Assembly (NCBI RefSeq): GCF_000497125.1
Contig: NC_090599.1
Location: forward strand, 248,001 to 312,000
Reading direction: 5' to 3'
DNA length: 64,000 nucleotides
Origin: Spironucleus salmonicida
Taxonomy: Eukaryota
The first letter of the stretch is position 1; each line of letters starts with the position of its first letter. A program made the position numbers and the translations under genes. The notes beneath the pieces were generated by a model. It made no database searches. It saw only the letters and a list, made by a program, of their open reading frames with translations, and had not been told where the DNA came from. Positions 2,225 to 55,859 of this stretch are shown here, piece by piece.

Positions 2225-2522
2225 ATGAGTGGGGTTAAATTTTGTGAACATAATTAGAAATTGAAGTTTTTGTTATCTACCTTAACACACTATCTATTGA
2301 TCATCTTGCATGAGCCGACTATTGTTTATTTTTCTTTATATATCAAGAAATATTGCGCCTATTCATCTTTAAATTTTATTTATTGCGGGTGAAATTACCT
2401 AGCTAATAAAATGGGAAATTGAAAAATCCTAAATATATCTTATAATTACATAATAACATAATTACCATACTACTTTTATAAGTATTATATATTAATTACA
2501 TTTATAATATTATAACTTTTTA

Positions 2523-22017: not shown

Positions 22018-23148
22018 TCATTGCTGATCCAACCCATTCTGCTTTTCAAACTAAGCTATCATTTTGCTGGTCTCATTCGAAACAACCTACTTTCCACCTA
22101 CCCTGCTATTTTCCTCATTGAAACTAGGGTCTTCTAAGTCATTGAAACTATTTTCTTCGACATCGTTCTCTTCTACGTCGGAATCTTCAACCTGCAGCCC
22201 ACCCTTCATGAGCATGCTTTCAGGTGCAAAAAGCACTATTTTCTTCTTTTTCTACCTAGTAGCTGCTTCTGGTGCCTAAATCACGTCCAAAACCTTATCT
22301 TAGTCTGTGATTTCAGCGAATTTATGCGAAGTGAGCATCTAACGAATCGACTGCGTAGGAATATAGTTCTACATTGTCGTAGTCTATGTTTTTGGACTAC
22401 TAAGTGGGTTGGGTGTGTAAATACTCCTGCTAAGCGTACTGTTATTACTATAAATATCTTCAGAAATAGTATGAAATTTTTGGGATAAATATGTCTTGCC
22501 GAAATGGTCCATACGCTCTTATTCTGCTAGCTATTTCAGTTCATGAGGACTCAAACGCCCTAGCTTTGCGTTTACCAAAAACTCCTAAAAAAGTGCGTTT
22601 TCAGCAATGTCCTTAACTTGCGGATTTTTGTACTTTTTAATCTTTTATGACGAATTTGCGTCCTCAACGTACTGGCCAGCAATTTCCTTAAAGTGGTCCA
22701 GAACGTCTTTCGCGGTTCGCTTTGCGACCGGCTTTTTAGCAGAAAATTGCGGAATCACGAATTTGGAAGTGGCTGGATTTTCGGTCATCGCAATTGCAGA
22801 TTCGATGTCTCTAACACCCATTTTGCATTTACAGTGACGGACTTCTTGCACGCTGCAACCGCTCCCATGTATTTGAAACTCTGATGCGCGCACAGCCCGG
22901 CGAATCGTCAAGTCTGTTATTTTTTGGGGCATTGAATCAACGTTTTCTAGCTGTGTCCTGGTGAGCATTTGACCGCATTTTCGTTGCAGGTCGATTCGAC
23001 GTTATGATTATTTTTTCTATGACTAGATAATCGACTCTCGAAAGTTATCTTGTTTGGTATATTTCTTATCTAGTGCATTTAAAGTCTGTAGAGACTCATC
23101 TAGAAGGTGATTGTAAGCACGATCTATCTAGGACGTTTTCGAGGACAT
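22018..23148 (-). CDS. Hypothetical protein with acidic C-terminus (376 aa)
   Basis: Contains ORF-track fragment 22645..22968 in frame. No in-frame TGA from ATG 23148. Confidence 0.8.
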
Positions 23149-24483: not shown

Positions 24484-26181
24484 ATGGAAAATCCGCCATA
24501 TTTTTCCCATTCCAATTTACAAATGTACAACAGTGGATATGCACCAAGAACTCCAGTTTAGAACCTGGAAATGCGTTAGGATGTACTAGATCATGAATCA
24601 TTAAAGCTAATAGAAGAGTAGAAAATGAAAATTTCAACAATCTAATCTTAACTCTAGAAAACAACTGTTGATGCTGATCGTAATATTATGCAGCTAGAGC
24701 TTCAGTTGTAACAATCATAGAAGAAAGCTGATGTTTTAGAGCAACAAATGTAGTAATCTATGCGCTAGAACACCCAATCCTCTCAGCAAGTAGCACAATG
24801 CTACGACTAAATCAGAAAGCTCTAATCAGATTCTTCTGTTTCCCAAGCTAACAACTAAAAGTTCTAGATGGAGCTTTAGTCCAAAAACGAGCAAATTCAA
24901 GCCTATGTTACATAGCTTCAATAGAAAAATGAGCTTGTTTCACGTATTTCTGCTGAGTCCTCATAGCGTTATGAGTAGCTCCAAAGAATCTAAATGGACC
25001 ATGGCAAACAATAAGAACAAATCAAGATGCTCCAACAGTAAAACGGTTTTTTGTCTGACCAGCTTAATAAGCTTAATACAGAAGTAAAATAAAGAGAATC
25101 ACAGCAGATCCAGATGTCATAACAACTTTAAAACACATCTACAGAGTCCTAATCACTCCAAAATCAGCTTCGTATGAAAAATGATCAACTTGATACAACT
25201 TATAAGCAAGTTTAAGCATTGTAATAAGAAGTGGAAAAGCGTAATCAAGCATTAGCATAAACTCAAATTGAAGTAGCCAAATCGCAGTAAAATTCGGGTC
25301 AGCTGGCTGCTGAATCGGGTGCTAAAAATGAACAGATCAAACAGCTGTAAAATTCGATCGCCTACAAATAGCAGGAAATCGACCAGAAGCAACAATAGCT
25401 GGACGCAGTTTATGAGCAATTAGCGCGTAAGAATGCAGAATTGCAGTAGAAAAACGACGTTTTGAGCAAGAGCACATACGACGCACAACAGTAGTCGGAG
25501 CTTGCCAGAAGCCTCAAGGCTGAATTGGAACAAAAATAGCAACTAATTGCATAGACGAATTCCAGAGCCAACCAACTCGCCCAACAGTCGGTTCAGTTGT
25601 AAAACGAGCTCTAACTGAAAGCTTCTCAGGTCTAGTAGACCGCCTAAGAGAGTTAGTCGCTCAAAAATCAAGTTTAAGTCATGAATTCGCAGATTCAAGA
25701 TTATTCGACTTAGTTAACTTAGACAAAATAATAATAGTATTAGGTTTATAGCAATTTAAGTCAGGTATAGTAGGAGCTTGAACGTGAAAAGCAGGAGAGA
25801 TTGGTTAAAGCTAGCTAAAGAGTTGCATTTTTGGAGCAGAAAGTGGTTTAGGAAGATGTGTTGGCGGATACTGTTGAACAGTTATCCAGGTCCACAAATG
25901 GGCTGTCTCAGTCAATTAATAAGAGTGGATTTAGTGGCTAGGCTAGTGGATACAATGGTGCAGGTTCAGGTTATAATGCTACTGGCTCTGGATATAATGG
26001 TGCAGGTTCTGCCTATAACCCAGGATCAGGATATAATGCTGGCGGATCTGGTTACAATGCTACTGCTTCAGGATATAATGCTAACTAAAACCCAATGAGG
26101 GTTAGCAGAAACACGGCAAATATGAGCAAGAACGAAATCAAGGATATGATTAAGACAATAGATTAGAGTCTTGTTTTGTGA
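24484..26181 (+). CDS. Long Q-rich coiled-coil protein with an SGYN-repeat tail (565 aa)
   Basis: About 450 aa of continuous heptads, followed by seven S[GA]YNxx(G) repeats. Confidence 0.85.
25945..26085 (+). repeat. Coding tandem repeat, 7 copies of about 21 nt (SGYNGAG-like)
   Basis: SGYNGAG SGYNATG SGYNGAG SAYNPG SGYNAGG SGYNATA SGYNAN, with synonymous divergence between copies. Confidence 0.85.
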
Positions 26182-34003: not shown

Positions 34004-34876
34004 TCATTCTTATTCAACGTGTGTACTAAAATTATCACTTACAGTATATTCGCTCATATAAATTGCACTACCTTTCCTACTATGTGAAACTAATTTTTTT
34101 ATATGATTAAAATCATCTTTTGTCAAAATTTCACATTTATCTGCTACAAAATCAAGCCCTGATGCATTTACTCTAGTTAACTTTTACGTAAGAAAGTGTT
34201 ATGCATCTAGTGTCATTTTTTCAACTAAATTATATACTTCGGAATCTGGATGAATATAATCTAAGGCCATCATTTGATCAGAATCCTAATATAATATCAT
34301 TTCATGTACGTGTTTCTCGAATAAATCAATCTGTGACTTTTCCAATAACTTTTATAAAACATCCTTTCTACCTGTTTTTGCAGCTAAAATAGCTGCATTA
34401 GAATCGCTTCTGACGTTTCCTAAAATTTCTGAATCTATATATGCATCTGATGTAAGAATTTTCAAGTCATCTCCTAGGTTATATGCAAAATTATAAATTC
34501 GACTTTCTGTCGGAAATTATCCCAAAAGAAGACCTATAAGGCCTTTCATGGTGCAGTACTAGATTATTTACTTTGTTACTTTTTTTGAACCACAAACTGA
34601 TGAAAAAAGTATTGCGTGACTACCAACTGGGAAAGTAAATGATTTTTCTGGTAAGTTAGTAACATTTATAGTTATTTCTTTTGATGAAGGTATATAAATT
34701 TCAGATTCTAGCAAAAATTCTGCGGATTCATAAGAATTATTAATGCAACAATAAAGTAGTGCTGTCAGACCTTCTTCGGATATAGTCGATACATATCTAC
34801 TCAATTATTTTTTAATAATCAGAAATTTGTCCCTTTTAGCTGAATCGAACCATCGCTTTTATTTTAACCTTTTCAT
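34004..34876 (-). CDS. Ankyrin-repeat protein of the diplomonad Protein 21.1 type (290 aa)
   Basis: WFDSAKRD...EGLTALLYCCINNSYESAEFLLESE. Includes ORF-track fragment 34568..34804. Confidence 0.8.
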
Positions 34877-35005
34877 TTAGTTAAAATAATATAGATTAAA
34901 TTTATATAATATAATATATTAACATTTAATTAATAGTTCACTGTCATTAATGAGCGTATACTTTTTGTTTCTAAATAATATATACTTTCGATATCAATCC
35001 TATTC

Positions 35006-36472
35006 TCACTAAAATCTACATTATGATTACTACAAACTAGCCAAAACATACACAGTAGACTATGAGTTAACCGATTATCCTTAAATACTGATTCCTGTAA
35101 ATGTACTTGCTATAATATTAATGCTTTATTCTACTATGTAATTTTAATTCGCGGAATTACCAAAACTAGTTGCAAATAGGCTTGTATCGACATTTAATTC
35201 ACCCGAAATGAGTACCCTCTATGCCGTCAAACTAGTTGTTGTTAAATCACCTGTCGTTGTTACATTACCAATTAAGCATTACTAATTGGCGGTGATTGAA
35301 GTACTAGAAAGTAACTTTTTAATATTTAAACTTTATGCTTTAAACGCACCGTTTACTGTCATTTATTGGGCTTTTATTTCTAATTGCTAAGTAGATCGAA
35401 TTTCCCCATTTGTCAAACTCAAAACTGCATTATTTACTCCTTGTTAAATAATTCTAGGTAGTATACAAACAGTATTATCAATGCGCCCTGTATTCCCAAT
35501 TGTAACTGCAATACTATTAAAACTTTAACACGTTAAATTATTAATAATTGATGCACCTGTTACAGTTAAAATATCGGTTTTTAATTCGTTTAAAGTGAGT
35601 TTATTTATTGTCAAACCTGAGAAAACAGATGAATTTACAGTAGCAGTCCCTGCAATTTCTACTGCTGCAACGTTGGTATTATTCAGTAAATCCAGAGATT
35701 ATGCCATTTAAACTGTAGAAAAGACTAGTTGAGTAAAATTAATGTTCAATGGTGAATTTGCAGATATTTCAGAAGGGAATCGAATATCGCTCCCAGTTAA
35801 AGCATTCATAACAGAATTAGTGATAGTAAGACCTGAAATAAAAGTATTTCCAGTGTTTGTATATGTTTATGTAACTTTAGTCTGCTATACTGCGGTGAGC
35901 TAAGTCGAAACCAGTGAATTTGAAGTGAAAGATTAAAACTACCCTGAACTTATGGTTGTCTATTGAGAATTTAAATTATTAACTATAGATGATTATGTAA
36001 ATGTGGCTGATGCAGAAGCAGCTTATTGAGAAATTGTTTTGGATGTTTTCAGGTTGCTAGATGTAAGTTAAGGGATAATACCTTGCTAGTTAAAGACTTC
36101 AAATGTGGTAGTTTATGAGACAATTGTTGATTAGGTAGATATATTTTAAATATTTAAAACATCTGCTGTAGCTGTTGTATAAGTAAATTTGTTTATAATT
36201 GGTGGAGTTGGAAGAATAGCATTTGTTGAGTTTAGAAGTTCACCACTTCCTATATTCGCTTAAAGTGATGATCCTGTAAGGCCTTATGGTGCTCTTAATT
36301 TTAAAGATGGGGCAAAATTAGCTTCGAAACCATTTTTAACAATAAGATTATTAAAAATTACTGTTTCCGCCATTAACCTAGAGTAAATAATAAAAGTCCA
36401 TGTTAATGATATAATTAATCCTAGGCCTAGTGATACTAGTAAACCAGTAAGAATTTTTTATTATTTATCCAT
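35006..36472 (-). CDS. Type II membrane-anchored, T/S/N-rich beta-repeat (fibre-like) protein A (488 aa)
   Basis: N-terminal TM ILTGLLVSLGLGLIISLTWTFIIY, then about 455 aa of alternating hydrophobic/small-polar residues with many NxS/T sequons. Paralogous to 36648..38117. Confidence 0.85.
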
Positions 36473-36647
36473 TTGTACGAAAAATTTGACTGAATTATCT
36501 TATTATATATTTATTATTAAATATCTAAAAATAAGTTAAATAATTTTCAGTATTTTTAATTTACCTGACTAATTGACCCTTTAAAATTTTAGAATAAATA
36601 AAGTAGTATATATATGTTATATTTTATAAACTTCAACTTTTCCAAAA
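36473..36647. promoter_or_regulatory. Putative 175-bp bidirectional promoter between the fibre-like paralogues
   Basis: Divergent ATGs at 36472 and 36648, with AT-rich TATTATATA-like tracts near each start as seen upstream of most genes in the window. Confidence 0.55.
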
Positions 36648-38117
36648 ATGCTAGATCGTTCAATCATTATCGCAATAATCATATTGATCTCTTTCATATT
36701 ATCAATCGTTATTATGATATGGACTATAATATTATATAATACACTAACTGCGTCAACAGTAGTATTTAATAATCTTATCATAAAAAATTAACTTACTTCT
36801 AATTTTTAGCCAACTACACTACTTCGTGCTGTATCTGGAAATTCACTTTTTGCTCAAATAGCACATGGTGAAAGATTGTAAACGTCTAATCCTTCTTTTG
36901 GTAATTTACCTACTGTAAAAAAATTTAGTTATACTACTGCAACAGCACCTAATTTAAATATCAATAAACTCTCAGTGAACAATACTATTGTTTAGATATA
37001 AACACAGATAGCATAATTTGTTTAATAGGGGACAATTCCCAGTCTAACGTGTAATAGTTTAACTATTAAAAATGGATAGGCTGGTGTTTTAACTACACAA
37101 CGATTCGCGAGTACTAATGCATTAGTCGGAGATCTTACAGGCGGTTAATTAATTTCTGGAAAATCTGTTATAGGTGAGCTTATTTCTACTGTTAGTACAG
37201 CAAATTCAGGAACAAATACCTAACTAACTTCTGTATAGGGGATTTATTCGCATAATGGTAATATACTAAGTATTGGTGGACTTAGAGTATAAAATTCACA
37301 GTTAACTTTTAATTCTGGTAGTACGTTCACTGCTCCTAGTTAATTCACTTCAACTAATAATTTAAATGTTAATTTTACTAGTATGACTATAGTTGGTCCT
37401 AATAGAATTAACATAAACACAAATTTAATTCTTTTAAATAATACATAAAACGTAGACTTAACAGTAGCAGGAGAAGGTATAGTAGATATGGGATAAATTT
37501 AGGGAATGACAATAAGTGCATTAGTAGTAAACACGTTAACATGTGATAGTTTAACGGTTAATGTTAATAGTAATATTTAAAATATGACGACAACTGCATC
37601 TTTTTCTACTGTCAGTTACACTAATGGATAAACTATAATAGATACTATAAAATTTTAAACTTAAAGGTTAAATTTAAAAGATGGAACTGGGAATACAGTT
37701 TTAACCTCTAACAGTATTGTATCTGCATAAGGTTTCACAATAAGGTCTAGTTTAAATTTAAATATTGCTGGAAATATGGTATGCTAAGCCGTTTCTTATT
37801 CAAACCTAATTTTCTCTACAAGTATTAATGTCGCAGGCGATGCATAGTTTACATAAAGTAATGGAAATTTTATTATATCTTAAACGTTAAATTCATTAAC
37901 ATCACAAATAACTGATACACTAAATATTGCAGGAACTTTGACAGTCGACAGAGTATTATAACCAGGCGGATAACCACTTATTTCCCCTTAAAATATAATT
38001 GTTTCAGGAACTCCGATACAGGGTGCTGGAATGACAGTTGGTAACGTATTCTCTGATACAATCCTCTTTTCAAAAGCAAATCTAAATAACAATTTGTGCA
38101 GAAATACCATGCAGTGA
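36648..38117 (+). CDS. Type II membrane-anchored, T/S/N-rich beta-repeat (fibre-like) protein B (489 aa)
   Basis: TM IIIAIIILISFILSIVIMIWTIILY. Colinear with protein A (TVVFNNLIIKN vs TVIFNNLIVKN; KFSYTTATA vs KFTYTTATA; QQGTIP vs QQGIIP). Confidence 0.85.
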
Positions 38118-38506
38118 GTTTAATTTGCACTAAACTATGTTGAATATTATTTTATGGATTTTAGTCGTAAGTATTTTTAGAGTAAAATAGGTAAATTTAA
38201 AGAGTTTATCTACTTTTAAAACCGATTTATTAACCTCAATTTTCTACTTTAAATTTTATTTTATAAAGAATAAAATTAATTTGATTAAACATAACAATAG
38301 AAAATAGAAGCTGAGTAATATTAAGAATATATATCATGGTTCAGCGCTATAAATTTATCTATAAACATACCTTGGTGATTATTAACAATATTTATTAAGT
38401 ATCAAAATATTTATCATGCTCTTGTATAATTTAGTTCTTTGTATAGAAATGAGGCACGTATAATATAGATATAATAATATATAAAAGGATTTTTGATATT
38501 ATAAAA

Positions 38507-38849: not shown

Positions 38850-41800
38850 TCACTATTTGACAATAAACTGAACTGTATCTTCCTCAATTACACAGTTAAT
38901 GATAAGTTTCTTCGAGAATAGGTTTTTACTAAGACTACCTGATTATCTATACTTAAAATATCCAAAATAATCATCGTTTTTCTATATATCTAAACTCCTG
39001 AGTCTAAATTAATGTATAGAATTTGATGGATGATTTGAAAATGTTATACAAAATTTACCGTCAGCTTCTGTTGTAGAAACAAACACAAAATTTTCTGATG
39101 GAATGAATCGCTTTTTAATGATTATAGATGAAAACAACGCATTTCCCTACTCAGGTATTATCGGAATAATCAATAAATCTGGTATTCCTGCACGAATAAA
39201 AATAAGTTTATCAGAATTTAATGAAATAGCAAAGATAAATTTATCTTTGATCTCAAACGATCTAATTAAATCAAAATTAGAATTATCATTAACTATAATT
39301 GAAGATTTTTGATAATCCATGTAGTCAAAAATACTAATTTGCCCAATTATAGAAGAAAAGTAAATCATTGAATGATTTTATAGATTAATTGATTATATTT
39401 TATCGCAAACACGAGAAACTACTGACACTATTTTTAATAAATCATGAACAAGCTGTTTTGACCCTTTTGTTTAAATATATGTTTAAAAGATTTATTTTGA
39501 AATAGGCAGTGTTTATTCTAAGATTATGCTACCAAATTGCTGCAATACACCAGGATAATTAAATTTAAGAAAAATAAAATATTTGTGAATGGAGTCAAAG
39601 CAACCAGAATTTTAATTTTTATTAATTAAATCGATAAAAACATTTATAAAACATTCTCTCCTAGTTTTTAAGAAAAATTATGTAACTTATTCATACGTAT
39701 ATGTTCTAAGATTTTCGTTTTCAAAATATGTGGAAAACTTAATTAAAGACTATATTATTTATATTATGTATTCAGAATCATCTATACTACCTGCATTGTT
39801 TAGAATTTCTTGACAATTTTCAAAACCAAATATGCTAGTTAAAAAGAAAAGATTATAAGATAAACTATGTAATAATAACCCTAAAGGTAAGAAATGACCT
39901 GTTGGTACGTTTGGTACATTCATAGCCTCATTATATTATTCAAATCTCATTATAATTTACTTAATTACTAATTTAAGACTATTTATTGCCTTTTGGGAAT
40001 CTCTAGATAATTCTTTTGACCCTCTGCCAGCCAAACTCACACTCTATCTTAAACTTGTTACACCTTCTAGCTCATCATAATTAGCTCCAATAAGTATAGA
40101 GCAAACCGGTTATGCTAAAGATTCTAAAATTACAATATATACTGGTATTTCATTTAATCTCTTTGCTTATACTTTTAGTATTAAATCTTATGTTTCTAAA
40201 ACTACATGTGAAATATATGAATCCAGAATTGAATGTTATATATACCAATCCGAAGCAATTTATTAATATAATCTAAGTATTGCAAAACAAGAATACTTAA
40301 TATGAATAGCAGATTCTAACATATAGTCATAAATATTATATAGAGATAAAAAATTATTGTTAGATTAAAAATACGCTTTAAATGCATCTTCTAAAATTTT
40401 AAATGATTCATCATTTATTTAATATTATGATGTCTAAAATTCATGCAAGAATGAAAATATAGTAAATATAGAGATAAATGATATTGTGAATAGATAATTC
40501 TCTTTTGATGAATAACATGGCTAATCAATAGAAAATGATATTAAAAACTATTCAAAGTCAAAATCTAATGATGTATTAAATGTTTAGTTAATTAATGTCA
40601 TGAAATTAGTAATCTCAGGAATATTTTACATATTTTAAGTAATATAAGTTATAACAGGCAAAATTCTTATACAAAATTATTGAATCATAAACTAGGCTTT
40701 TATATCGATTCTAAGATCAATTTTATCACAAAATATACTTTATAATTAGTATGAAAATATTTATGAATTTTCGTATCTAGAAAAATGAATAGTACGGAAC
40801 AATGAATGATCTAATAGTTATATTGTATCATATTATAAAAACTTAGATCTTAAATCCCAAAAATCTGGAAGGTCAATCTTTTTATTTAAAACTGGTTTAT
40901 ATTCTAGCTATGAAAGTTGGATTACTGATACTGAACTAGTTTATTATTCAGTTGTTGATTTAGTAGACGCCACTAAGCTTGTTTATGATGGTTCATAATT
41001 GGAAACAGACGCTCGTATATGAGTTTAAGGTTCGACATTGAATGTTTTGTTACATTCATCCATATATTATTCTAATCTCGCCAACATTTTCTTTAATTTT
41101 AATTAAAAAATATTTTTATGCTATACATAATACTCCTATGCATTTCCTTTACGACTTGTTACTTGTTGACTTTTTCTTTAAATATCGATAAGGGATAATG
41201 GGTCCTAATTTTCATATTAAATAAATACTTATTAAGCATTATATAAATAGCATTACTATTCGATATCCTTATTTAACGGATAATCAATAGTAAAAGAGCT
41301 TGTTTATGCGTAAATCATTAGCATCTCTGTGAATTATTAAAAAATAAACTGACTAGGCTCCAAAACTTCTAAATACCCTTATTACTATGACTCTAGATAT
41401 ACAATACTACCATTTTTATTTTAATCCAGTGCGTAAATCATATCATCTTATGGTAAAACTAAACAAAATTCAAATTATGATATAGGATTAATACATTAAA
41501 GTATATCTTTTGTTAAATTTTAAATATAGATAGTATTATAGTCAGTAATAACAGTACAATAAACAGACTTCTATTAGAAAACTACGACAGAACGTGGCTT
41601 ACCAAAAACGTAAAAATTAAAGATAAGTTCAATTTACGATATTTCATTATATATTTTATATATACTAATTATGCTTTCATCATCGTTATTAGAATATGTT
41701 GAAAATGCTAAATAGATACAATCAACAGATGATGATAAACACAAATTCTCAATCGGCTAAGTTGTAATCTTAAGCGATTTAAATTTTGCAATATTCAAAA

Positions 41801-42746
41801 TTTCTAGCTGCGATTCTTTAAAATTATATATTATAATAAGAGGTGTCATAGAAAATAGGTTAAGTGATGTATAGTGCATAGTTTTAATATGGGATAGTAT
41901 GATTCTATCTGCATATTTTTCATCTCCGCCAGATGAATAATCAATATTGGGTGTAAATTTAAGATTATCTAAATCTAAATATATTAAATCCTGTGAAGAT
42001 AACATTAACTATTTATTATTTTATTAAATAGATTCTAAACTTAATTTCAGATCATAAATATAACATGATTTATCTGACAAAAATAAATTAAACTTATTAT
42101 CTAAAAATTAAACACTAACTATTTTATACTTAGAAATTTCAATCTTATTTTCAAGTTATAACTAAAAATCGTATTATTCAATCATATTCTACCGGAAGAA
42201 ATATAACTTTTGCTGAAGACAAAAGAAATCTATAATATCTTCATTGAAAATAAGTTCTTTACTTAAAACAAATTACTAAAATTAAATAACATAGAATTAT
42301 TATTTGTTTATTAACATTCCAACAAATTCTTCATTTAGTTTAAAATATTATGAGGTAATTATATCATTTTTTGCTTGTATTTATAAAATCTCGCCAAAAA
42401 TATCAATAAAAACTATTTAATTTACCTTTGAAGCAATAAGTTGAGAATCATTTACCTAAAATACATTTATATACTAATCAAAGTTGATAAAATTAACATT
42501 CTTTTTTGTGAAATTATATACAAAAATTCCAGAATAGGTTTAAATAAAGATGTTTTATGTCTCATAAGGTGGTAATATAATTTTGGTACTAGAGTTAATT
42601 CTGATTTGGTCATAAAATTGATTTTATTTCGTAATATAAAGATGAGTGTCATAAATATATACAATATAATCTTATGTAGGGATAACATTAACTAAATTCT
42701 TTTGATACATCATGGAGTGAATTTAATGAACAGTTATATCTACCAT
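38850..42746 (-). CDS. Large protein with N- and C-terminal beta-propeller-like regions and a helical middle (1298 aa); WDR7/WDR72-like architecture is tentative
   Basis: A single frame joins ORF-track fragments 41757..42005 and 39147..39368. Short beta-strand periodicity at both ends (e.g. GQISIFD). Stop context TAGTGA. Confidence 0.7.
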
Positions 42747-42806
42747 TTTGATTAATGGAGTGGTTTATAATATATTTATTTATCATAATAAAAAGTTAAT
42801 TTTTTA
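42747..42806. promoter_or_regulatory. 60-bp divergent promoter region shared by the propeller gene and the dynein-like gene
   Basis: Divergent ATGs at 42746 and 42807 with an AT-rich core TTTATAATATATTTATT. Confidence 0.5.
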
Positions 42807-45800
42807 ATGAGCAGAAGACAACTAGTTATTACAAACTAAGTGGGTAACGCTTTAATAGCATTACTTAGCTAAGAAATATTATATGAAAATACTGAAAATG
42901 CATAGTTAATTGAAGTATTTCTTTCAACTCCCAGAATAAAGTTTCTTTACTTTGCTTTACCAGGATTTTTCACTTTACAATATCAAAGTAATGGATCAGT
43001 AGCTATAAAACCACAAGTAGATTTATACTAAACTAAGCTTCCTTTAGAATCTATATCATTTTTACTTATTAACAGTTAATTAAAAAATATGATTTTATAA
43101 AACTATTTTTAATTTAATTCGTTTTAGAAGGATGCATTCTTACCATTAAATAAAGCATTTGGGACATATTTTAGAAATGAAAACACTTAGCTTCCTTAAC
43201 TTACAGAAAATTAGTTGGCTTAAATATAAAAAACTGATTGCTAACCAGCCCACTTTGTATTTTTAGAAGAACTTCTTTATATATAAATTCAGGCTATGAG
43301 ATAGGTTATAAATTTTGGATTATAATAAAATTATCAGCCGATTTATTCTTAAATATAAACTGAAGAAGAAATACTAATTAACAATTAGTAGCCATTATCT
43401 CCAGTTGCTGTTCTATTTTATCGATTTTATTAAAACAAAAACTATAGCTATTCTACCATTGGTATGGAAACATTATTATATTTAACCCAATAAAATGGTT
43501 TATTTAGATATTTATAAAATCTAGTTATACATGAAGGTAATCTTCTCAATCTGTAGTCGTTTAATCCATAAATTTTGCAAATTTTAAGGAAAAGAAAGTC
43601 ATTAGCAGTAGGACAATATGATATAGTATCATTTAATGTTAATATAAGGATTAAGTTTATATAAAATTTAATAAAATTATTCAAACCTTCTTATCCACTT
43701 TTATGCAGATTTATTAATATGTCTTTTTCAAGCTTCAAACCAAAATACGAGCCTTTAATTAAAAACAATCAACACTAAAGGAAACTGTCATGGCAAACAG
43801 CTTAAATCCTTTTTGATATTGTTAATAAAATAAGCTAAAATATTAACTTTGATAAATCATTAACTCAATAAGAATTATACGATTAATAAAAAATAATCTC
43901 TTTCATATTACCTGCATTTTATAATGAGATTATATTAGCTACTAAAAATTATATGGAACTTGATAGCTAAGCAATCATAGACCCATAGAACTATACAATC
44001 AGATTGACGATGATTATAGATTTCTATAAAAATATGTACAAACTTACATAGTAAGAGATATTTGAAGGATATTTAAGAAAAGCTGGAAATGTATTATATT
44101 TAATATAGTAATTATATAATTATTAAAATCTTTTACAGGTTATCCAAGATGAATTTTTGCCATTTTCAGTATAACTGAAAGATGATATAGAAAACTCTAT
44201 TCTAGAGTTAAATAGTTTATGTATCAATAAATAAACTACATCATTCCTCACACTAGTTTCTGATAATATTTTACATGTTGTTAAGGAAGGAAAATAAATT
44301 GTATAGTACACACAGGAAGATAACCTATTAGTACCATATACAGATCAGCATATTATCGATGAACATTATCATGTAGCAGCATTATTCCATCTCAAATGTT
44401 AAATCATAACGGAAAAATTATCAGATCTAGAAATAAATATTACCAGTCATTTATTAGATGGATTTTAAACAATTGATTCAATTATTGAATTTTTATAGGT
44501 ATTCATCAAAGTCTCATATTTATTTACAAGTAAACCTGTTATTCTTTAGTTATCAAGAGTTTTTGATAATTACTTAATATTTGTTGTTAAATTTTTTGAT
44601 ACAATACCTACATCCATTAATGAATTAGAATACTAATAAACACAGATATGCAATATTGCAAAGTTTATTAATAAGTTGAGTATTAACTTATTATAATCTA
44701 TGTTATAATTAGAAGAGAATTGTTATTTTATATAAATATCTAAAGATACATAGTTTTAGACATTATTAACATTAGCAAAATTAATTACATAAAGGTTTCA
44801 CGAATATTTATAAGAAGACTTAACATTAACTTCTATAAAGTTGCATTCTATTTGCCCACATCTTAACTGGTTTATTATATAGTTTGAATAGTATTTAAGC
44901 AAGTCAACAGAATTAAAATCAAATTTAATAAGATTAAAAGAAGATTACCTGAAAGAGAAAGCAATTTATTTCTTAGAAAAAATTAATTAATCCGTATTTG
45001 ATGTTATCACCTAGGATTTAATTACGTTTATCGATTTAAATGGATTAATAAATTATCTTATTGAATTAGATAATTTTATTATATATTCTCATTAACAATA
45101 ATAATAAATAGAATTAGAAAGTTACGGAAATTTTGGTCTTTACCCTCCAGTAAACTGTTTTGTGCCTGATATTGCAATATCCCTTAAAACATAAGTTTAA
45201 AAATTTAATATTATTTATAATTATAAGTAGTTAACTTTTATTTATAAATCACGATTGAATTTATAGATTGACAACCTATTTTAAGTTGCTGAATCTAGTA
45301 AATTTTTAACTTGGACAATGAATTTATAACTAAAAGAATTTTCGAACAAAAGTGCTTTTATGCTTAGTAATTCTTTAATGAGCAACTAGTTATTTTTTGA
45401 GGTTATTGGTGAATGCACAGAAATGATAGATCAGTTTTATTTGGAAAATGAGTTTAACTAAAAAGATTTAGAATAATATTTATAATATGATGACGACTTT
45501 TTATAGTTACTTAAAGATACTATCATAGCAAATAAATCCTTTTTAATGTTTCCAGTTGAATCTTTCGATTTGGAATTGTAAAATTATTTTAAAATAGGTT
45601 GTTTTTGTTATGATTAAGGTTTAAAAACTCAACCTCCTAATTTAGAAAAGAAATCAAAAAACTTCAGAAAAGTTTCATCATAATTACAGAATAAAGAAAT
45701 ATTTAGAATTATAGAGCATACTATACTTAAATGTAAAAATTATTTAAATGAACTTATATGCAATATTTAAAATAAAATAATTACTAGTTTATCCGAAATA

Positions 45801-48800
45801 AATTAGGATTTTTATTTTCAAATTGTTCCAGATTTATAAATACTTGTCAATAAAATTAGAGATTTAATATCTTGTGTTTAAATTTTATAACTTGGTATAT
45901 TATTCTTATTTATGTCGGAGAAAACATATCCATTATTTTAAATTGATGCTTTTTATGATGATTCTATTCATTATAGTCCTGATATAATGACTACAACATA
46001 GCTTATTCAATTATTTTCTAACATTATCACAAATTAAGAAATAGACAGTCAATAAAATTTAGTAAATAAAGATGTGTTGCATAAATTAAGTTAATGGCTC
46101 GATATTATTTTAGATCTATAAAATTATGGTTATAATATTGATTTGACAAAATTTAAAGAATAATCTGATATTAATGTATTTAGTTCACCATTTACTCGCA
46201 TATTGTTATGGATTAATTCTATTATGTCTTCTCATTCATATTTAAACACATTTATCAATGAATTATAAAAATAATTTTAAATTACATTGGTGGTGAATTC
46301 TATGGATACTGTCACTAATTTGATAATACCATGCTTATATAATAATTGTAAATATCCTATTTCTTAGATTTAAATCTATTTATTTATTTAAATCGAAAAA
46401 ATATTCTAATAAATATTTGACTAAATATAAACGACAGAATAAAATATCTACATTATTGACGCAAAGATAGTTGAATTAAAAGCTATCAGATATTAAGTAT
46501 AAGATTTATTTTAGATTAAAAGTAAATTATAAAACCTATTGATAGAAGATTATGAAACTATTTAGAATCTTATATAGTTGTATGATGCAATTAAAGATGA
46601 ATCCGTATTGAAATAGTTTTTCTCATAATTTGATGTGTTCTTAGATTATCTCAATAAATTTTAATATTAGGTGAATAACATTCATTTAGGTTTCACAGTT
46701 CTAAATTCTACTAAATTATTATCATACTATTAAAAAATTGTATACGATATTGTACAGGAAGCAATGTCCCCTGTTGTCGCATTTATAGAAAGTGTACTTA
46801 ATGATTCTAGTGCGTAGCTATAAAAATAAATTGTGCAATTAGAACATGTAATAGAAGAATGCACCTAATAAACATCTGTAGATATTTCTAATTATAATAG
46901 GGTAGAAAAACTTATTAGAAGTTCATTTATAATGAAATGTTGTATTTAGACATTTATTCTAATTAATTAAAAATGCTTAGATATGAATATATTTTTAACA
47001 TCAAGCAATGTTTTAATTCATACTAATATAGACTAATTTTAAAGAGAATTACCAGTAATAAAATTTAAAATAGATGATATTAATTAAAGAGTTGATATAT
47101 TAGTTAATAATACACGAATTTAGTTCATTTATCATACTCATGAGTTATTTGGATAAATACTGACAACATAAGATTAGTTTATGGAAAAATTAATATTTAA
47201 TACTTTTAAGGAAGAGAATTTTAAAGATTTTTATATAAGTGATTCAGAAAAAATTATATCAAAAATAAGCTCACTTATTGAAATTGTTGATTAAAAACAG
47301 TTAGAATAGTTTAGAACATCACTACTTCATATTTATGAGTTAAGATATTTATAAGGATAATGCGAATGTTATGATATCCAAACTGAATATTACTCTTTGG
47401 CTAATATAAGTACTTTTGTTACTTAATAGATTAATAAATCGACATTTATTTCATTATAAAAGACAGTACAGTATAAAATATTGTCTTATTAGGAATTAAT
47501 TTTATTAATATAGTTATTTTAAAAATTGATATGTAAAAAAGTAAGTTATTTCTATAAAAGCGTTGATTCTTTTTTATATTCAGCAAGAGAGGCCCATAAT
47601 AAAATTATATATAATATAGAAAATATTGATAATGTTTAGATTAAAAAATAATTATATGAATGTATTAAAGTAATAGATTCGTTATGGTCTAAAATTACTT
47701 TTTTCTTGTCTTATAAACTTTTTTAAAAGCATCATTGGATAAAAGTTCTAATTACTATATAGAATAAAGACTAAAAGTAATATTAAAAAATTTAAAATTG
47801 TATATAAATTTGGTAAATTAATGATGAACCTGAAATTTAGTAATTAATGATAATATAAATAGAGCAAGTTAGTAATATTTCTTAGATTATATAAAATGCA
47901 TTTGAAGAAGATATTTTTAATAAAACTATATCTTAAATTACCATAAACTACAGATAAATCTTGGAAAGTGACAAATAAGTTCTCCTGCAACAAATAATCG
48001 AGCATTTATCACAGTTTAAATAGGAATCCCTAGATATTTCATACATAGACACAATAGGTATTCTTAAAAATTTGTAAGAAGAATTCGTGCAAAAAAGAAT
48101 ATAGTTTCATTTTAATTAGGCTATATCTTTGTATAAGTTACAATAAGTAAATGATCTAAACTTATAATAATTATTAAACTCTCTTTAATACCTTTAAAAA
48201 CTTTGTATTGAACATCCATATATGGATTAATTATCGGAATATAGATAAATTTATTACTAATTTCAATCATATATATTAGTATTTTTCTTATTTGGGTTGC
48301 TAATTTGTAAATCCTTTAATAATTTCTAAATTGTTTCCTTTTTATCACATTCTTCATTATTTGACAATTTGTGTTTAGATATTTCATGTATATACTAGAT
48401 TGGTACATAATAAGATATGAATGAAGTAATAAAAATATTTTCAGGGACAAGCATTACGATATATCAATAAATATTAAAACTATAGTATAGTGAGGAACTT
48501 GTAAATGATAATATTATTGTACTTAATCCAATCTTTAGCTATATCGACGACACATAACCTAATAATTATAATGAAGCATCGTAGAATGTCTTTAAAAATG
48601 ATGAAGAAATATCTGAAATCTCAGCAATATCCTTAAATGAGATCTCATAGGAAGATTTATAGATAAATTAAAATGAATGGGCTAAGAAATATTCTATAAT
48701 AGAGTCGCTCCTCTTAACTGTATAATTATAAGACAATATTCTTTAAAATATTGTTTAATTTATTAAGTGTAATCTCTAGGTTGCAAATAATGTAACAAAC

Positions 48801-51800
48801 AGTGCATATTATTATAGTTTAAATGCTCTTCTAGAAAAGGTCAGACAAATAGAGAGTCTTCATCTTTTGAAATTAATGACAACTAATTCAGACATATTTC
48901 CTATTGTTTAAAAAGATATTTTAGATTTAAATTTTATCAAAGATTTTTGCTAAGTATTTATATCAAATAATCTGAATAAGTCTAAGTATAGTAAAATTTT
49001 AACTATCTTAAGAAAAAAAGCTAATATTAAAAAATATTTTCAAATATAATAAAATGTCGAAAATTAGAACAACAACAGTTTGTTTCTGAATTTTATTTAA
49101 GAAATGTCAATAAATGTGCTATATCCATTTATCGCTTCTACTGTCATATCCTCATATGAAGTAAATACTATTATTGGATTTTAAACAAAAAGTTAGGTAG
49201 ATGAAAACTCACTATCCACACAAACATTCGTACCACTATATAGACCAATTAATACATAAGATATGCCTGAAATACCATGTATTGTGTTTCCATTTTCGAT
49301 TAACCACCCATTCCTACAAATTATTGTCCAACTAATACTACTTATTGAAGAGTCAATCGCCATTTATACCACATAATGTATCAAAAAACTTAGGTTAATG
49401 CTACATATTTCGACACATGGAGATAGTTATTACTCACCAAATTTATAAAACGATTACGAATTCCCACTAGAAATTTTCCAACATTCAGACCAGTATAATT
49501 ATCCCTGTACAATCTACCCTTCAGAAGTAATATAAACTGCCTTTTATATAGTATTGGATTCGAGTATTGTTATTCCACATGAAATTTATATAGAAAAGGA
49601 ATACACTCTGCAGAGTTCTGTATAAATGGGCGTCCTACTAATCTCAAAGCTTGAACTTTTCATTCAGCAAATTTAGGAATTTATTTCAGGATTCCTATCG
49701 GTACAACACAAGAAAAAGAGTTTTGTAATAGCTATGGTTTCAGAATTACCATTCGCTTACGAAAAAGCGAATATTTTATATAATATTGCTAATTAATTTC
49801 TGACAAAGCTAAAAAGTATTTTATAAAATCAGCAGCAGAATTAGCATATCCGGAACATGATTAACTATGATGCCAATAATTACCTATATAAGTAACTAAA
49901 GTAGCCATTTGTAGTCATTCAACATGAAATTTTGTTATCCAACGACGATACTTTTCAGTTTCTAGCTAGCTCGGTACTACTGCAACTTTAGAAAACAGAG
50001 CTAAATCCAGAGTAGCTGATTATTCTTTTGTAAGATGGTTCTATTTCTAGGATATCATATGTATAGTAAGTGTATGCATCAAGGGAGTAATATATGCAGA
50101 CTGATATGTTGCCATTTTTGAGTACGTTTGCTAGTAAAAAGTTGACAGAATCAGCACAGTCGCTTTTAATAGATTTTCAGGTTTTGTAGAAAATTAATTA
50201 TTTAGCATCCAAGCTTTCATTATTATATCAGGTTTAATAGTTCTCACATCTTAGAGAGTATGCTTTATAGATTTATCATCCGAAATTTAAATAATTAGTG
50301 CCAGGAGCTGGTGATCTGTTGTCTATTCGGTAATTTTCATTACCTAAATACGATTTTCTGAACATTAAGTACTTAGATTAAATAAGTTTTCTTATTTTAA
50401 CTTAGCTTAAACCTCAAATTTTTGGAGGTAGGAGTTCTGTTCGATCTAAAACATATACAAATAATTACACATCAACTTTTATATCACAAGCAAGAAACAA
50501 CGTGGTGACAAATGATGTATTTGGATAGCCATAGTGTGAATATATAGTTAATATTTAAAATTCTTCATATAGTATGAGTTATAGTTAAACAGAAGATACA
50601 TAAGATTAAACGCAGAGTGTTAAAACAGTTTAATATAAATTTCATCTAGTTTAAAGAGAATAGGGATGGGATAGATTATAATGTGCTAATAATTACGACG
50701 ATCAATATTCACCTTTTTATGATGAAGTGACTAAAAACATAGAAGACGAGCTAATAAAGGACTCAGTAATAGTAATAGATACCTTATGTGTATTCGTCGT
50801 TTTATCTTCATATTAATATGCCCAGTGCGAAACAGATTTCTATTATGATATCGTTAGCTCTGATTTTTTATAATAATAATGGTGTTAAAGTATAATTAAT
50901 TTTCTATAGGGAAAGTTAAAGTTGGATTAGTAGTTTAGATTTAAAGTACAAGTATAAGAATTAGTCACTCTCTTAAATAAAATTCCGCCACTCCATTTAA
51001 GGATTGGAATTTAAAATTTTTATGAAAGCTTCTTATCAACATCAAACATTACTTTATAACTCTCAAATTATATATCTGAATATTCTATAATCAGATATAA
51101 TATTATAATTAATAACATAAGCAAGTATATTTATTAAATTCTTAACCGTATAGTACTACTTACTGCATAAAGAGTTTAAATACATGTAATAAATTTTAAT
51201 TTTCACTAGTTATAACTTTTGGATGAAATTGCTATTTTATTAAAGTACTGTCTTCAATTATACATAAACGAAGATGTGGAGCTATCTTTCATTAACAATA
51301 TTTAATCTTAAATAGCCAAGGATTCCATGAAATAGTATAATCTTATTGTCTTTAATAATATAAATTAATAACAAATATCTGAATAAGATATTAAGCTCAT
51401 TAAATCTCAATATTAATCTACATAAATGATAATTTTATTAGTAAATTAATCTAAAAGTATACATTATCCTCTTGTTGATTACTAATCAACATTACAGTAA
51501 TTTGGATTAGCTTAATTATTAATGATAAATATTATTATACATTATCAAAAATGGGTTAATATGAAAGATATAATTTAATAGGAGTAAGAATTAGATTATT
51601 TAGATATATTTAGTGAAAAATTCTAAGGAGAAAAATTAGAATTTAAGAAGTAATTAAGTAAAAATCTTCTAATGACTAACTATTTTTACAAATATTAAAA
51701 AATTATTGTAAATAACACTATTATTGATATTTATATTGATGTTTTACTGCAAATAATGGTAATTATATAAGATCAAGCAAAACTAAAATATAATGACATG

Positions 51801-54800
51801 TTAAACCTTTAGCTTAATGTCATGAACAGTATATATTCCTCTTTTGATGCAGTTTTATTTTAATTACATTGTCATCTAAATTTAAAAATTATTCAAGTTC
51901 CACATAGTTTTTGGCTTGGTCTTGTTATATTTTTTTCATACTGGTAATATAAGTAGCTTAAAATCGAAATGCCACAGAAAGCAATAATGTAATCAAGAAA
52001 TAATAGATTTTTGCCGTCTATACTAACATTTAAAACGGTAAGTGAATCACAACAATCAAATTAAGATTTTAATTCTTGGGATATTTTCTTAACATAAACT
52101 GTTGGGTTAAATTTAATGTTTAAGATATAATCAGATCTTTCAATAAACAAGTTTATTCCTCAGTTAGTAATAGAAAATAAGCAAATTCATCATGTATTTG
52201 TCGAGCTAGATTCAGTAGAGTTATTTGATACATATACACACATATCTGATATTATTTCCGTATTATACATGAAAATTGAATAAAAATATTGCACATCAAA
52301 ATAATAAAATACTAAATTTATTAATAAACTATTATCTAACTAAATAATTCATTAACATGGAATAATGAAAGGTGTTGATATTATTATCTTAAAGCTGTTC
52401 ATCTAAAAATATCATTATAATAACTATGTTGAAATGGGGTCTAAGTTTTAATAAAGTATTTTAATCTAGAAAATCACATCAACTTAATATATTGATAATT
52501 ACATATTTAATAACAACTATATTGAATCTTCATACAATCCTTTCAATATGTATCATAAGAATTTAATTTATATAATATAAATTAATGATTAAAACACGGT
52601 AAATTTAATAAATTAAAAGCAGTTAAACAAAAATATTTTTCTCACTCTTGAAGATTCTAATTTGAATTAATTTTTAATACCATTATATTAAAACTAATAA
52701 CCTCTAAACTAAACGCAGATAGTTATGAAAGAAATTGCAAATCACTTTAAATACGAAGAAATTAATTCTATTATCACATACTAGAAGATAAAACTAGATC
52801 AAATATCGAATTATTAAGCTTTATCTACATCATTACCTTAAACATTATGTTTTACATTAAATGTTTTGTTCATTGCATAAAATTATTTTTAATGTTCATT
52901 TAAAAAGTTTTTATTAAAACACTAGTCTTTTTTTAATTAAATATTATAGCATGATTCTGTGAATTAATTATTATAAAAACATTATAGCAATCTTCTTAAT
53001 GATAATCCATAATTTTAATTTATTATTTCTACCTTATTTAATAAATTAGAATTTAGTATTTGCAAGCCAATAGTTCAATATCCAGGTAATAATGGTATTC
53101 CATTTCAAGATGATACCTATTATTAAGATAGTTACTAAATAATTAATGCAGACACTCTTGTTGTTAGTCAGCACAATATTATCAATTTGAATAAATCATT
53201 TCTATCATAATATAATGCAAATACTCTATAACTGTAAAAATTGATATTCTTTTTAGATTTTTATTAGCATTTGTAAGTCTATTAAAATGAAATTTATTTA
53301 CTGGATATAGTTCAAGATGTAACAATAATCACAAATTCTAAGTTTTATGTTTACTAAAACCAAAATTTCTTAGATTTTTATCTAGGTGTTTGTTTAAAAG
53401 TTGTATTACTCAAATAAAGATGCATTATATTAGTTCAAAATTTAGAAATTGAAGGAATATTATAATATTTAACAGAAATACTACAAGATGGTTATTCTAC
53501 TAGTTTGATTACCTAATGTACTGCTGATCAAGAGATTATGTTTTTGTAATAAATTAAAAATCTTAGCAATACATATGATTTATAATTTTTTAGTATTTTA
53601 GATGTTTTGTAATATAAATTTTTTGAAAATAATTCTATATTAGACCTTATTCACATTATAATTGAATCTAATGATTAAAAATCAGATAATATGATAATTG
53701 ATCTCCATTAAGATAAGATAGAAGAATCAATATTTTCAGACCTTTATTTAACTACATAAAGTTAAAAACTTGAAGAAATTCATCATTATCATTAGACAAT
53801 TCTAACACACTTAAGAAATACATTCACGGTAACAGAATAATAATTACTTTATTTTTAAGATATTTAAAACTAAGTCAATTAAAATATAATTGACCATGAA
53901 TAAAGATTTAAGCGTACCTTACCTAGTTATTAAGATTTATAGTCAGTGTAAGATTTTGAGTAATAAAATATAGAGTATAATAACAAAATTGAGTAACACA
54001 ATAAACTTATGGATATACAAGTTAAGATTAATAATGATATAAATTTAGAATTAAAATAAATATAAGATTAGATTTTATTATCTGAACAATATTAGTAAAC
54101 ACTTCGGCATAAATTAAAATAGTATCGACTAAATGTAAGGTAAATTAATCATTATTAATTCCATGTTTATAAAGAAATTAGTTAGATTACAATTTAAGCA
54201 ATTTATTTAGTGATAACTCAAGATAAAAAATTTTCAAATGTGGAGAAGTATATGCGTAGAAAATTTGATAACATTGATAAATTAATTAGAGATATAACTG
54301 ATTCGTCAGTAAATATACCAAAGGATTGCATAACGATTTTGTTGTCACTTATATAAGTTAAAGATTAAATGTTTAATAGTAATTAGGATTTTAATGATTA
54401 AATTGAAAAGCTCATTTTCTAATCATAACTTGATGAATTTTTGTTAAAAATAGTACTGAATTTACTTTTTCTGAGCTAGAAGACCATAGAAATTGAGCAA
54501 AATCAACTACTAATTCCTCCGTTATAGAGTAGAATTAGGCTGAACTAGTTAGGATAATAGAAATTAAATAAAAAATTAGATTAAATTATTAATGAGTAAA
54601 ATAAAATTTAACTGAAAATAGATTTTATTAAAACAAATGCAGAAAATTAGATAACAAAAAATTAATAGTACACTCGAATTTTAGATGAAATGCACAATAT
54701 CAGCAGTTAAGTCAAAGTAATTACACCTAATATATATTATCAGTGTTAAATTGTTAGAAATTTAAATAAAGAACTCGAATTTAATTCTCATTTAGCAGCA

Positions 54801-55859
54801 TTTCTTCTTTACTAACAATAATATTTCTCTTCATAGTAATAAAATTTACTTGAAAAATCATTTGGATAAGATATTAACATACCATAAAAATTTTTGCCTT
54901 ATATTTTACAAAATTATTTTACTAAATAATAACTAATTTCTCTGTATAAAATGTGTAGTAAATATAAGGTTTTAAATAAGAATATAATAATTACTAAAAA
55001 TGATACTTAAATTACATAAGAAAAAATAGTATTTTTAATGTAAAAACACAAAACTGATGCTGCATTTTGTGACCAGCTTTTCAATCTGTTTAATGCATAA
55101 ATAAATTAGTTAGAAGAGTTTTTATTTGAAAATTTGATTAATCTTTTAGATAATGACATTATATTTCTTATTCTGAAACAAGTTTTCTTAAGTAATTCAT
55201 GTATATTATAAACAGATAACAAGCAAATCGCGGAATTAATAGGAAGCTTTATGCAATATAATACAATTATGCCATTTGAATATTATACTAGAATTAACAT
55301 CTGCACAACTTCATAAGACATTCAAAAACTTAATTTTAATAGAGACTACTATCAAAACGATTAAAATTGTGTTATATTGATTTATAATATTGAGTATTCT
55401 GTTGTTAAACCGTTGTTACATTCTAGGCATTATGGAAATATATATAGATTTGACTACAAAACAGGATCAATATAAGACAAAGAGTCTTATATAGAATTTA
55501 GCTCTTAGGTTGATATTAAAATTCTATATGTCTAATAGTAAGATGTTAATGATAAGTTTATTAACACATATGATATTAAAGTAAAAAAATTAAAAAAAGA
55601 TAAGAATGCAGATTATAATTCATACTAAATACACTAATCTAATAGCTAAACCATAAAGAAATATGATGAAACTCTAGATAGTTACGAGTAACTCCAAAAG
55701 TAATAACAACAATTGTTATAATTAATTCATAAATAAAATCAAAACCATAGTAGTATTAATGAAATAAACTAAGGATATTAACTATATAAGGACTCTCTTT
55801 ATGCGACAATAATTAATTTAATTGAATACAAAAAATATATTGTAGGTAATGTTGAATGA
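42807..55859 (+). CDS. Giant degenerate dynein-heavy-chain-like protein (4350 aa)
   Basis: Every TGA across 13,053 bp was checked and none is in frame before 55857. DHC-like segments occur in the expected order: tail, linker end (FQIVSFLSHSSLFDNL ~ FPRFYFLSNDELLEIL), stalk coiled coils flanking an MTBD-sized insert, NSHLAAFLLYQQQYF (~GDxLLxAAFLxYxGxF), and an AAA5-like region. Confidence 0.72.

Follow-up and report, generated by a model that had tools for sequence, protein, structure and literature searches.

Two genes that face away from each other lie at positions 35006 to 38117 of a 64,000-nucleotide stretch of Spironucleus salmonicida DNA (contig NC_090599.1, positions 248,001 to 312,000 of the forward strand; the whole stretch is referred to below as the window). 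When the region between positions 33000 and 40500 is translated with translation tables 11 and 4, no open reading frame (ORF) of at least 100 amino acids (aa) is found. All known Hexamitinae diplomonads use a code in which TAA and TAG specify glutamine (PMC11437800). Read with table 6, where TAA and TAG are both glutamine and TGA is the sole stop, the region resolves into the following features.

35006..36472, minus strand: gene A, 488 aa followed by a TGA stop, with 36 in-frame TAA/TAG glutamine codons
36473..36647: spacer between the two start codons, 175 bp, 16% G+C
36648..38117, plus strand: gene B, 489 aa followed by a TGA stop, with 29 in-frame TAA/TAG glutamine codons

The genes are arranged head-to-head and their products are paralogues, with 33% identity over 484 columns in BLASTP (E 1e-43) and a colinear alignment that runs from residue 23 to residue 486/485. 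A first-pass annotation of this DNA had described a divergent, colinear pair of 488 and 489 aa with a 175-bp gap, and this is borne out under table 6 and by BLASTP. The example peptides that it quoted are present, except that gene B reads IQGMTIS... where FQGMTIS... had been given. Taken as a whole, its observations are partly confirmed and its interpretation is partly supported; its proposals of a fibre, a hetero-oligomer and a shared promoter found no support in the tests made. No third copy of the gene was detected within the window by tblastn.

At 25-30% G+C and with no stop other than TGA, several frames contain long ORFs, and the choice of frame has to be checked. Six-frame translations of both gene regions were compared pairwise. 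The pair of frames that gives A and B scored 200 bits, while any other frame pair reached at most 78 bits. Each of these two frames contains one TGA, at its end, whereas the other frames contain 3 to 20, with the exception of the B-1 frame, antisense to gene B, which likewise has only one. Nucleotide identity between the genes at codon positions 1, 2 and 3 is 0.46, 0.55 and 0.40 respectively, the pattern of coding DNA. Given the frame-pair score, the single terminal TGA and the codon-position pattern, genes A and B are true coding sequences in these frames.

Two long ORFs lie on the opposite strands.

36854-38368, minus strand: antisense ORF of 504 codons, opposite gene B
34743-35732, plus strand: antisense ORF of 329 codons, opposite gene A

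Their translations also look beta-rich, since the codon set of T, S, N, I and V is for the most part self-complementary. A gene map built by greedy selection of the longest ORF chose the antisense ORF instead of gene B, and such ORFs are a trap for gene callers in genomes where only TGA is a stop.

Contigs from four runs of one study, for which the library type is not on record, are identical to both gene bodies and show no joints. In the same four runs no contig spans the spacer and parts of the locus are without cover. Among the listed runs none is recorded as RNA. The matches establish the sequence as reproducible but do not tell whether or not it is transcribed.

Both proteins begin with a tail of only 4-6 residues (MDKQQK in A and MLDR in B), which leads into the strongest hydrophobic window of each chain, starting at residues 5-11. 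In the AlphaFold models this segment is a helix with a predicted local distance difference test score (pLDDT) of 78-85 in A and 73-84 in B, and it is the only part that is confidently modelled. Hydrophobicity and the modelled helix agree with the very short N-terminal tail and the one N-terminal transmembrane (TM) helix that had been proposed for the pair. The membrane-proximal and C-terminal features are located as follows.

36386..36454, minus strand: gene A hydrophobic segment, residues 7-29 (23 residues), read as a signal anchor
36660..36734, plus strand: gene B hydrophobic segment, residues 5-29 (25 residues), read as a signal anchor
36332..36400, minus strand: gene A residues 25-47, TM-end and juxtamembrane conserved block, within one of the two best-conserved blocks
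36720..36788, plus strand: gene B residues 25-47, matching TM-end and juxtamembrane block
35015..35020, minus strand: Cys485-Arg486 of gene A, 4 residues from the C-terminus
38097..38102, plus strand: Cys484-Arg485 of gene B, 6 residues from the C-terminus

The best-conserved 30-column blocks of the alignment are columns 31-60 and 91-120, each 53% identical, with columns 301-330 next at 43%. The first of these runs from the helix end into the juxtamembrane stretch (WTxIxY...TVxFNNLIxKN) and the second carries KFxYTTATAxxLNI.

Past the helix come about 455 residues in each protein, a body in which T, S, N, Q, I and L abound. Together T, S, N and Q make up 43-44% of the composition (S+T 24-26%, N+Q 19%), hydrophobic residues (ILVFMWYC) about 31-32% of the presumed ectodomain, and proline 2%. 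The sparse charged residues noted earlier (41/488 in A, 8.4%; 33/489 in B, 6.7%) and the scarcity of cysteine are both evident. There are four cysteines per protein (0.8%), at positions 315, 336, 399 and 485 of A and 135, 299, 379 and 484 of B, and no CXXC or CXC spacing is seen among the four of either chain. The Cys-Arg motif reported near both C-termini is also there, A ending in CRFQ and B in CRNTMQ; the termini are polar (...QSQCRFQ and ...NNLCRNTMQ), and the cysteine of this motif is the only one conserved between A and B.

The cysteine-rich membrane proteins of diplomonads are defined by more than 5% cysteine (PMC3916229; a higher cut-off is used in PMC11437800) and repeated CXXC/CXC. 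The Giardia VSP and HCMP proteins and Spironucleus CRMP-1, CRMP-2 and CRP come from the same organism group as A and B; they too are membrane proteins whose large bodies are non-cytosolic, and their genes often form duplicated families (PMC3916229, PMC11437800). They differ in having more than 5-10% cysteine, CXXC/CXC repeats and a C-terminal TM helix with a short cytoplasmic tail, whereas A and B combine low cysteine and no CXXC with an N-terminal TM helix and have only two members, as judged by tblastn of the window and a profile search. The pair is, as had been stated at the outset, not of the VSP/CRMP type.

Many N-x-S/T sequons had been reported for the two proteins, but these turn out to be depleted. 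A contains 7, where about 11.7-11.8 would be expected from its composition, and B contains 4, where about 13.1-13.2 would be expected. None of 2000 shuffles of B was as low in sequons (0/2000); the corresponding fraction for A was 0.066. The observed/expected ratios of 0.60 for A and 0.31 for B are the two lowest of 17 proteins in the window, the 15 neighbours ranging from 0.71 to 2.10, with some of the neighbour ORFs in this comparison taken from the first ATG and perhaps slightly too long. No depletion is seen in the mirror pattern, S/T-x-N, with 15 against 12.3 expected in A and 19 against 14.1 in B. This asymmetry fits the pattern expected from selection against N-glycosylation of a domain exposed to oligosaccharyltransferase. 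Selection against sequons was reportedly proposed for other parasites by Bushkin and co-workers in 2010. A directional loss of sequons gives, from sequence alone and at little cost, a hint that a domain is exposed to the lumen or the outside, and the statistic could be applied genome-wide to sort thousands of orphan genes.

AlphaFold2 models were built from the two-sequence alignment of A and B and have a mean pLDDT of 38.5 for A and 39.3 for B. Between residues of about 100 and 465 both models contain strands only, and the sole non-strand element past the TM helix is a six-residue helix, 482-487, at the C-terminus of the B model. The body is predicted to be all-beta. The pLDDT is 25-35 over residues 31-280, the least-bad part, at about 50-58, lying at roughly residues 290-380 in both models. 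Positions that are hydrophobic in both paralogues tend not to be adjacent (lag 1, z -3.8), and the 3-4 spacing of a helix is not seen among them. Foldseek gave no match in the PDB at E <=0.001 for either model; the best were at E 1.3 for A (2odl, the HMW1 secretion domain) and E 2.2 for B, with TM-scores of at most 0.25, and the non-significant lists are dominated by beta-helices and leucine-rich-repeat (LRR) solenoids. The ESM Atlas models of A and B, with pLDDT of 0.51 and 0.44, have TPS/filamentous-haemagglutinin, autotransporter, DUF2807, FapA and bactofilin models as neighbours, at TM-scores by query of 0.58-0.76 for A and at most 0.42 for B. At those pLDDT values, their likeness to a right-handed parallel beta-helix amounts to a TM-score by query of 0.73-0.76 for A and 0.35-0.41 for B. 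The best scores in an Atlas feature search were 0.79-0.80, a level that one third of shuffled proteins also reach. These pointers agree, weakly, on a single-chain beta-solenoid. Since they are weak and all share one source, the composition, they constitute one lead and not a result.

The nearest shapes to the Atlas model of A, and more weakly to that of B, are bacterial solenoid adhesins. The bodies of TPS/filamentous haemagglutinin, HMW1 and autotransporter passengers such as Hbp resemble A and B in being long, low in charge, rich in T/S/N/G/I/V, poor in cysteine and all-beta. There is, however, no sequence relation, the Pfam families TPS (PF05860), Fil_haemagg (PF05594) and Autotransporter being unmatched at E <=1, and A and B lack a 19-20-residue repeat. 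They also differ in their eukaryotic host, in their N-terminal TM anchor, where the bacterial proteins have an outer-membrane partner or barrel, and in the use of TAA/TAG for glutamine.

The pair had initially been described as composed of beta-repeats with a periodicity, which shows no clear excess over shuffles. In neither protein is there off-diagonal self-similarity beyond shuffled controls; the best off-diagonal 20-residue self-matches score 37 in A and 33 in B, where the mean shuffled maxima are 34.6 and 34.2. The best hydrophobic period of A has a power of 1.26, under the 95th percentile of the shuffle maximum (1.86). That of B, at 7.25 residues, has a power of 1.82, which is borderline against the 95th percentile of 1.78 and under the 99th (2.13). 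No octa-, hexa- or 15-residue hydrophobic period is present in A or B. The shared hydrophobic positions do favour a spacing of 5 (z 3.0), and the only place where a five-residue spacing is visible is residues 287-306, within the part of highest, though still low, model confidence.

35555..35614, minus strand: four LTxNx-like pentads, gene A residues 287-306
37506..37565, plus strand: matching pentads, gene B residues 287-306 (MTISA LVVNT LTCDS LTVNV)

These four pentads and the lag-5 spacing recall pentapeptide-repeat proteins. In contrast to those proteins (PF00805 and relatives), A and B have no Pfam match at E <=1, and their spacing is local, has no harmonics and is reached at some lag by 48 of 500 permutations. 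In the pentapeptide consensus, moreover, the polar Asn/Asp comes before the central hydrophobic residue, whereas in A and B it comes after.

That no characterised family covers the pair, as the first-pass annotation had supposed, is upheld by searches of Pfam, NCBIfam, PHROGs, the PDB and 1.84 billion protein representatives. Pfam contains no family at E <=1 for A or for B, and Pfam, NCBIfam and PHROGs together give nothing better than E 0.12; PHROGs has no family for A, and for B a single one, at E 0.2. Against PDB sequences A alone finds only matches at E 0.22 or worse, and the A+B profile nothing at E <=10. A word-indexed protein search with A returned only A itself among 8000 scored candidates; since even B was missed, such a search is insensitive to this composition. 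With the A+B profile, HMMER found three of the 1.84 billion representatives at E <=0.001, namely A, B and P0003. P0003 is a bacterial InlB-B-repeat protein (Flg_new_2, E 1e-80) with nine matches on a 53-residue stretch and was rejected as a repeat artefact. Pattern searches at the DNA level, which would catch code-6 genes broken by protein callers, gave 458 matches in metagenome contigs and 593 in viral contigs, with no relative confirmed in the former and none confirmed by tblastn in the latter.

This lack of relatives counts for little, because the closest gamma-tubulin in the collection is only 63% identical and no near relative of the organism is therefore present. About half of the genes of S. 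salmonicida are orphans (PMC3916229), 4903 of 8067 being hypothetical and only 847 of those resembling anything in another species (PMC3916229), and with such a share of hypothetical genes an orphan pair is the norm in the lineage and no surprise. Within titles and the openings of abstracts, no literature on Spironucleus was found with beta-helix, and none that was relevant with adhesin or solenoid. The pair is no strong anomaly, and the avoidance of sequons is one neat side observation. As one orphan pair where roughly half the genes are orphans, it is of practical worth more for tagging than as a discovery.

The genes are native or long-resident rather than recently imported, since their use of TAA/TAG and their G+C content at third codon positions (GC3) match those of most neighbours. 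TAA/TAG account for 82% of glutamine codons in gene A and 81% in gene B, and GC3 is 0.20 and 0.18 respectively.

The best explanation, which we hold tentatively and at a little under an even chance, is that A and B are an inverted duplicate pair of signal-anchored, beta-rich surface or secretory-pathway proteins, native to this Hexamitinae diplomonad and structural, coat-forming or adhesive in role. An old inverted (head-to-head) duplication would have given two paralogous genes for single-pass membrane proteins. The short N-terminal tail and the helix of 23-25 residues would act as an uncleaved signal anchor; the segment is read in this way because it is too long for the usual cleaved leader, a stretch of this length exceeding the core of a typical cleaved signal peptide, and because its C-terminal half is conserved. 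Such an anchor would put the all-beta domain of about 455 residues in the lumen of the endoplasmic reticulum and then at the cell surface or in an endomembrane compartment. A body that is lumenal or outside would fit with the very low charge as well as with the directional sequon loss. It would most likely be an irregular, non-repetitive, beta-rich rod of the solenoid type, although the pointers to this are weak, and the architecture hints that it serves in structure, coat formation or adhesion and is not an enzyme. The domain may be better off unglycosylated, for example if glycans would disturb a tightly packed beta rod. In this account the genes, their frames and paralogy, the hydrophobic helix, the composition, the scarcity of sequons and the lack of a known family are observed, and the topology, fold class and function are inferred from them.

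Several points weigh against this explanation. Neither an internal repeat nor a significant period was found relative to shuffles, and the lag-5 spacing has no harmonics at 10, 15 or 20 and is matched at some lag in 48/500 permutations. The fold evidence is poor, with the mean pLDDT at 38.5/39.3, the Atlas models at 0.51/0.44 and no significant Foldseek match, and the solenoid-like neighbour lists are not mutually independent and may only reflect composition. Taken by itself, A shows a weak sequon depletion (P 0.04-0.07), and the depletion could have a structural cause, N-x-hydrophobic being enriched in B (24 against 18 expected). Charge leaves the topology ambiguous, the flanks after the helix being about as positive as the N-tails MDKQQK and MLDR. 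A conserved L-x-A at residues 33-35 is a possible signal-peptidase site, which would make the proteins secreted.

It is this L-x-A that bears on an unlikely alternative, in which the hydrophobic stretch is a long signal peptide that is cleaved, the mature proteins being secreted as wall, matrix or cyst material and possibly cross-linked through the C-terminal cysteine. The invariant L33-x-A35 follows directly on the hydrophobic stretch and is compatible with a signal-peptidase site, for which the -3/-1 rule holds, and a low-charge, beta-rich body with a single conserved cysteine would suit an extracellular structural protein. The hydrophobic core of 23-25 residues is, however, much longer than usual signal-peptide cores, and conservation of WTxIxY in its C-terminal half would not be expected of a discarded leader in proteins that are 33% identical overall. 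Diplomonads are described as having non-typical signal peptides (PMC11437800), which is in favour of cleavage.

The first-pass annotation had itself proposed an in-register trimeric or hetero-oligomeric beta-helix fibre, anchored at the N-terminus and co-expressed from one bidirectional promoter, which we now consider distinctly unlikely. A and B seem to share with trimeric phage and viral fibres and trimeric autotransporter adhesins an N-terminal anchor, an elongated shape, a richness in beta strands and a low charge. Fibres that are obligate oligomers are often modelled poorly as monomers, and the pLDDT of 38-39 would fit this; the conservation is strongest at the TM end and juxtamembrane region (53% in columns 31-60 and 91-120); and the single conserved cysteine near the C-terminus could form an inter-chain disulfide. 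Against this, the periodicity on which the analogy was built does not rise above shuffles, and the octa-, hexa- or 15-residue period or repeat typical of triple beta-helices and beta-spirals is missing. There are no phage or viral relatives, neither a PHROGs family beyond the one at E 0.2 for B nor any confirmed relative among the 593 viral-contig pattern matches, and the closest model shapes, weak as they are, are single-chain solenoids.

The genes are adjacent, colinear and almost equal in length, and the matched length had been taken as a sign of in-register assembly. The alignment contains 15 indel runs, with 16 gap columns in A and 15 in B, and if the 15 indels are given random signs the net length difference is at most 1 in 16% of cases (P=0.16), so that the match is unremarkable.

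The shared promoter fares no better. By eye, a TATA-like run lies about 30-40 bp upstream of each ATG, and the bases directly before the ATG are AAAA at gene B and CAA at gene A. The spacer contains short AT-rich inverted repeats only, with no palindromic duplicate of a promoter. The core elements described for S. salmonicida lie within about 60 bp of the ATG: a TATA element between -60 and -20, then a C-rich dip around -10, and A's immediately before the ATG (PMC3916229). The TATA-like runs and the A-rich bases on either side of the spacer agree with this layout. A and B thus seem to have separate core promoters, each within about 45 bp of the respective ATG, and as neighbours they may or may not be co-regulated; TATA-like strings are cheap in DNA of 16% G+C. 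The spacer looks like two core promoters placed back-to-back. Short intergenic gaps are the rule in the window, as judged from a crude ORF map, and the mean intergenic distance in the species is 421 bp (PMC3916229); a divergent spacer of 175 bp is ordinary. A sigma-70 promoter scan was set aside as irrelevant to a eukaryote.

A bolder proposal is that A and B represent an undescribed class of diplomonad surface protein, without relation to the cysteine-rich VSP/CRMP coat, in which glycan-avoiding beta-solenoid rods with N-terminal anchors would pair or trimerise through the conserved membrane-proximal block and a C-terminal inter-chain disulfide to form a hetero-oligomeric spike or adhesin. 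We regard this as a long shot. The known surface biology of diplomonads is dominated by cysteine-rich proteins with C-terminal anchors, and a beta-rich pair with few cysteines and an N-terminal anchor would be a second kind of exposed protein, possibly an adhesin or antigen, in a fish parasite.

Another reading of the very low model confidence (pLDDT 25-35 over residues 31-280) would make the body a mostly disordered stalk of low-complexity S/T/N/Q sequence, similar to a mucin or a prion, in place of a folded beta domain. The S+T of 24-26% and N+Q of 19% would suit such a stalk, as would the lack of any recognisable domain, though tandem and internal repeats are absent too. With about 31-32% hydrophobic residues and only 2% proline the ectodomain is unlike a mucin stalk, the end-to-end colinear alignment with conserved hydrophobic positions points to a constrained fold, and the codon-position identity, highest at position 2, shows purifying selection on the residues. 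An unstructured stalk is quite improbable.

A reversed topology, with the N-terminus outside and a cytosolic body tethered at both ends through lipidation of the C-terminal cysteine, is very improbable. In its favour, a long hydrophobic helix behind a tiny N-tail can insert with the N-terminus outside, there is a near-neutral charge balance across the helix, and the cysteine of A stands exactly 4 residues from the end (CRFQ), the position it has in a CaaX motif. Against it, the cysteine of a CaaX motif should be followed by two mostly aliphatic residues and that of A is followed by R and F; the cysteine of B is 6 residues from the end, so that no CaaX box is conserved; 7-8% charged residues is very low for a cytosolic domain; and nothing in the cytosol would account for a directional depletion of sequons.

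Around A and B lie eukaryotic genes of ordinary kinds, all of them uninterrupted ORFs under table 6; they include genes for gamma-tubulin, a CCT subunit, a Nop56/58-type protein, a protein kinase, a MutL-type protein, a RasGEF and proteins with LRR and ankyrin repeats, the ankyrin gene lying at 34004-34876. The G+C content of the window is roughly 21-38%, mostly under the S. salmonicida genome average of 33.4% (PMC3916229). Three genes stand apart from the others in codon usage, with GC3 of 0.40-0.43 and TAA/TAG making up 50-53% of glutamine codons, and coincide with the G+C-richer 2-kb bins of the window; the remaining 12 genes measured have GC3 of 0.18-0.23 and TAA/TAG usage of 67-84%.

2310-4619, plus strand: gene of high GC3
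22018-23148, minus strand: gene of high GC3
24484-26181, plus strand: gene of high GC3, encoding a 565-aa, extremely glutamine-rich protein

The 565-aa protein is predicted, by eye, to form a coiled coil and carries a run of GSGYNA-like repeats at its end, which has a sub-threshold match to a Pfam glycine-rich-protein family (E 3.6e-4, 21.6 bits against a cut-off of 30).

Three further ORFs of the window are of note.

38850-42746, minus strand: 1298-aa ORF adjoining gene B
42642-55859, plus strand: uninterrupted 4405-codon ORF under table 6, with 400 TAA/TAG glutamine codons
56665-58092, minus strand: gamma-tubulin

The 1298-aa ORF is without a Pfam family and has no relative, not even itself, in a search of 5.8 billion proteins; perhaps the database lacks it, or records it with different boundaries. 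Since not even itself was matched, its use as a control is uninformative on database coverage. Gamma-tubulin, in the same 5.8-billion-protein collection, has no relative above 63% identity apart from itself, a measure of the isolation of this genome and of how little an absent homologue means for its faster-evolving genes. The 4405-codon ORF is a giant orphan that matches none of the Pfam families at E 1e-5. Because the first ATG of this ORF overlaps with the beginning of the divergent 1298-aa ORF, its true start may be further in.

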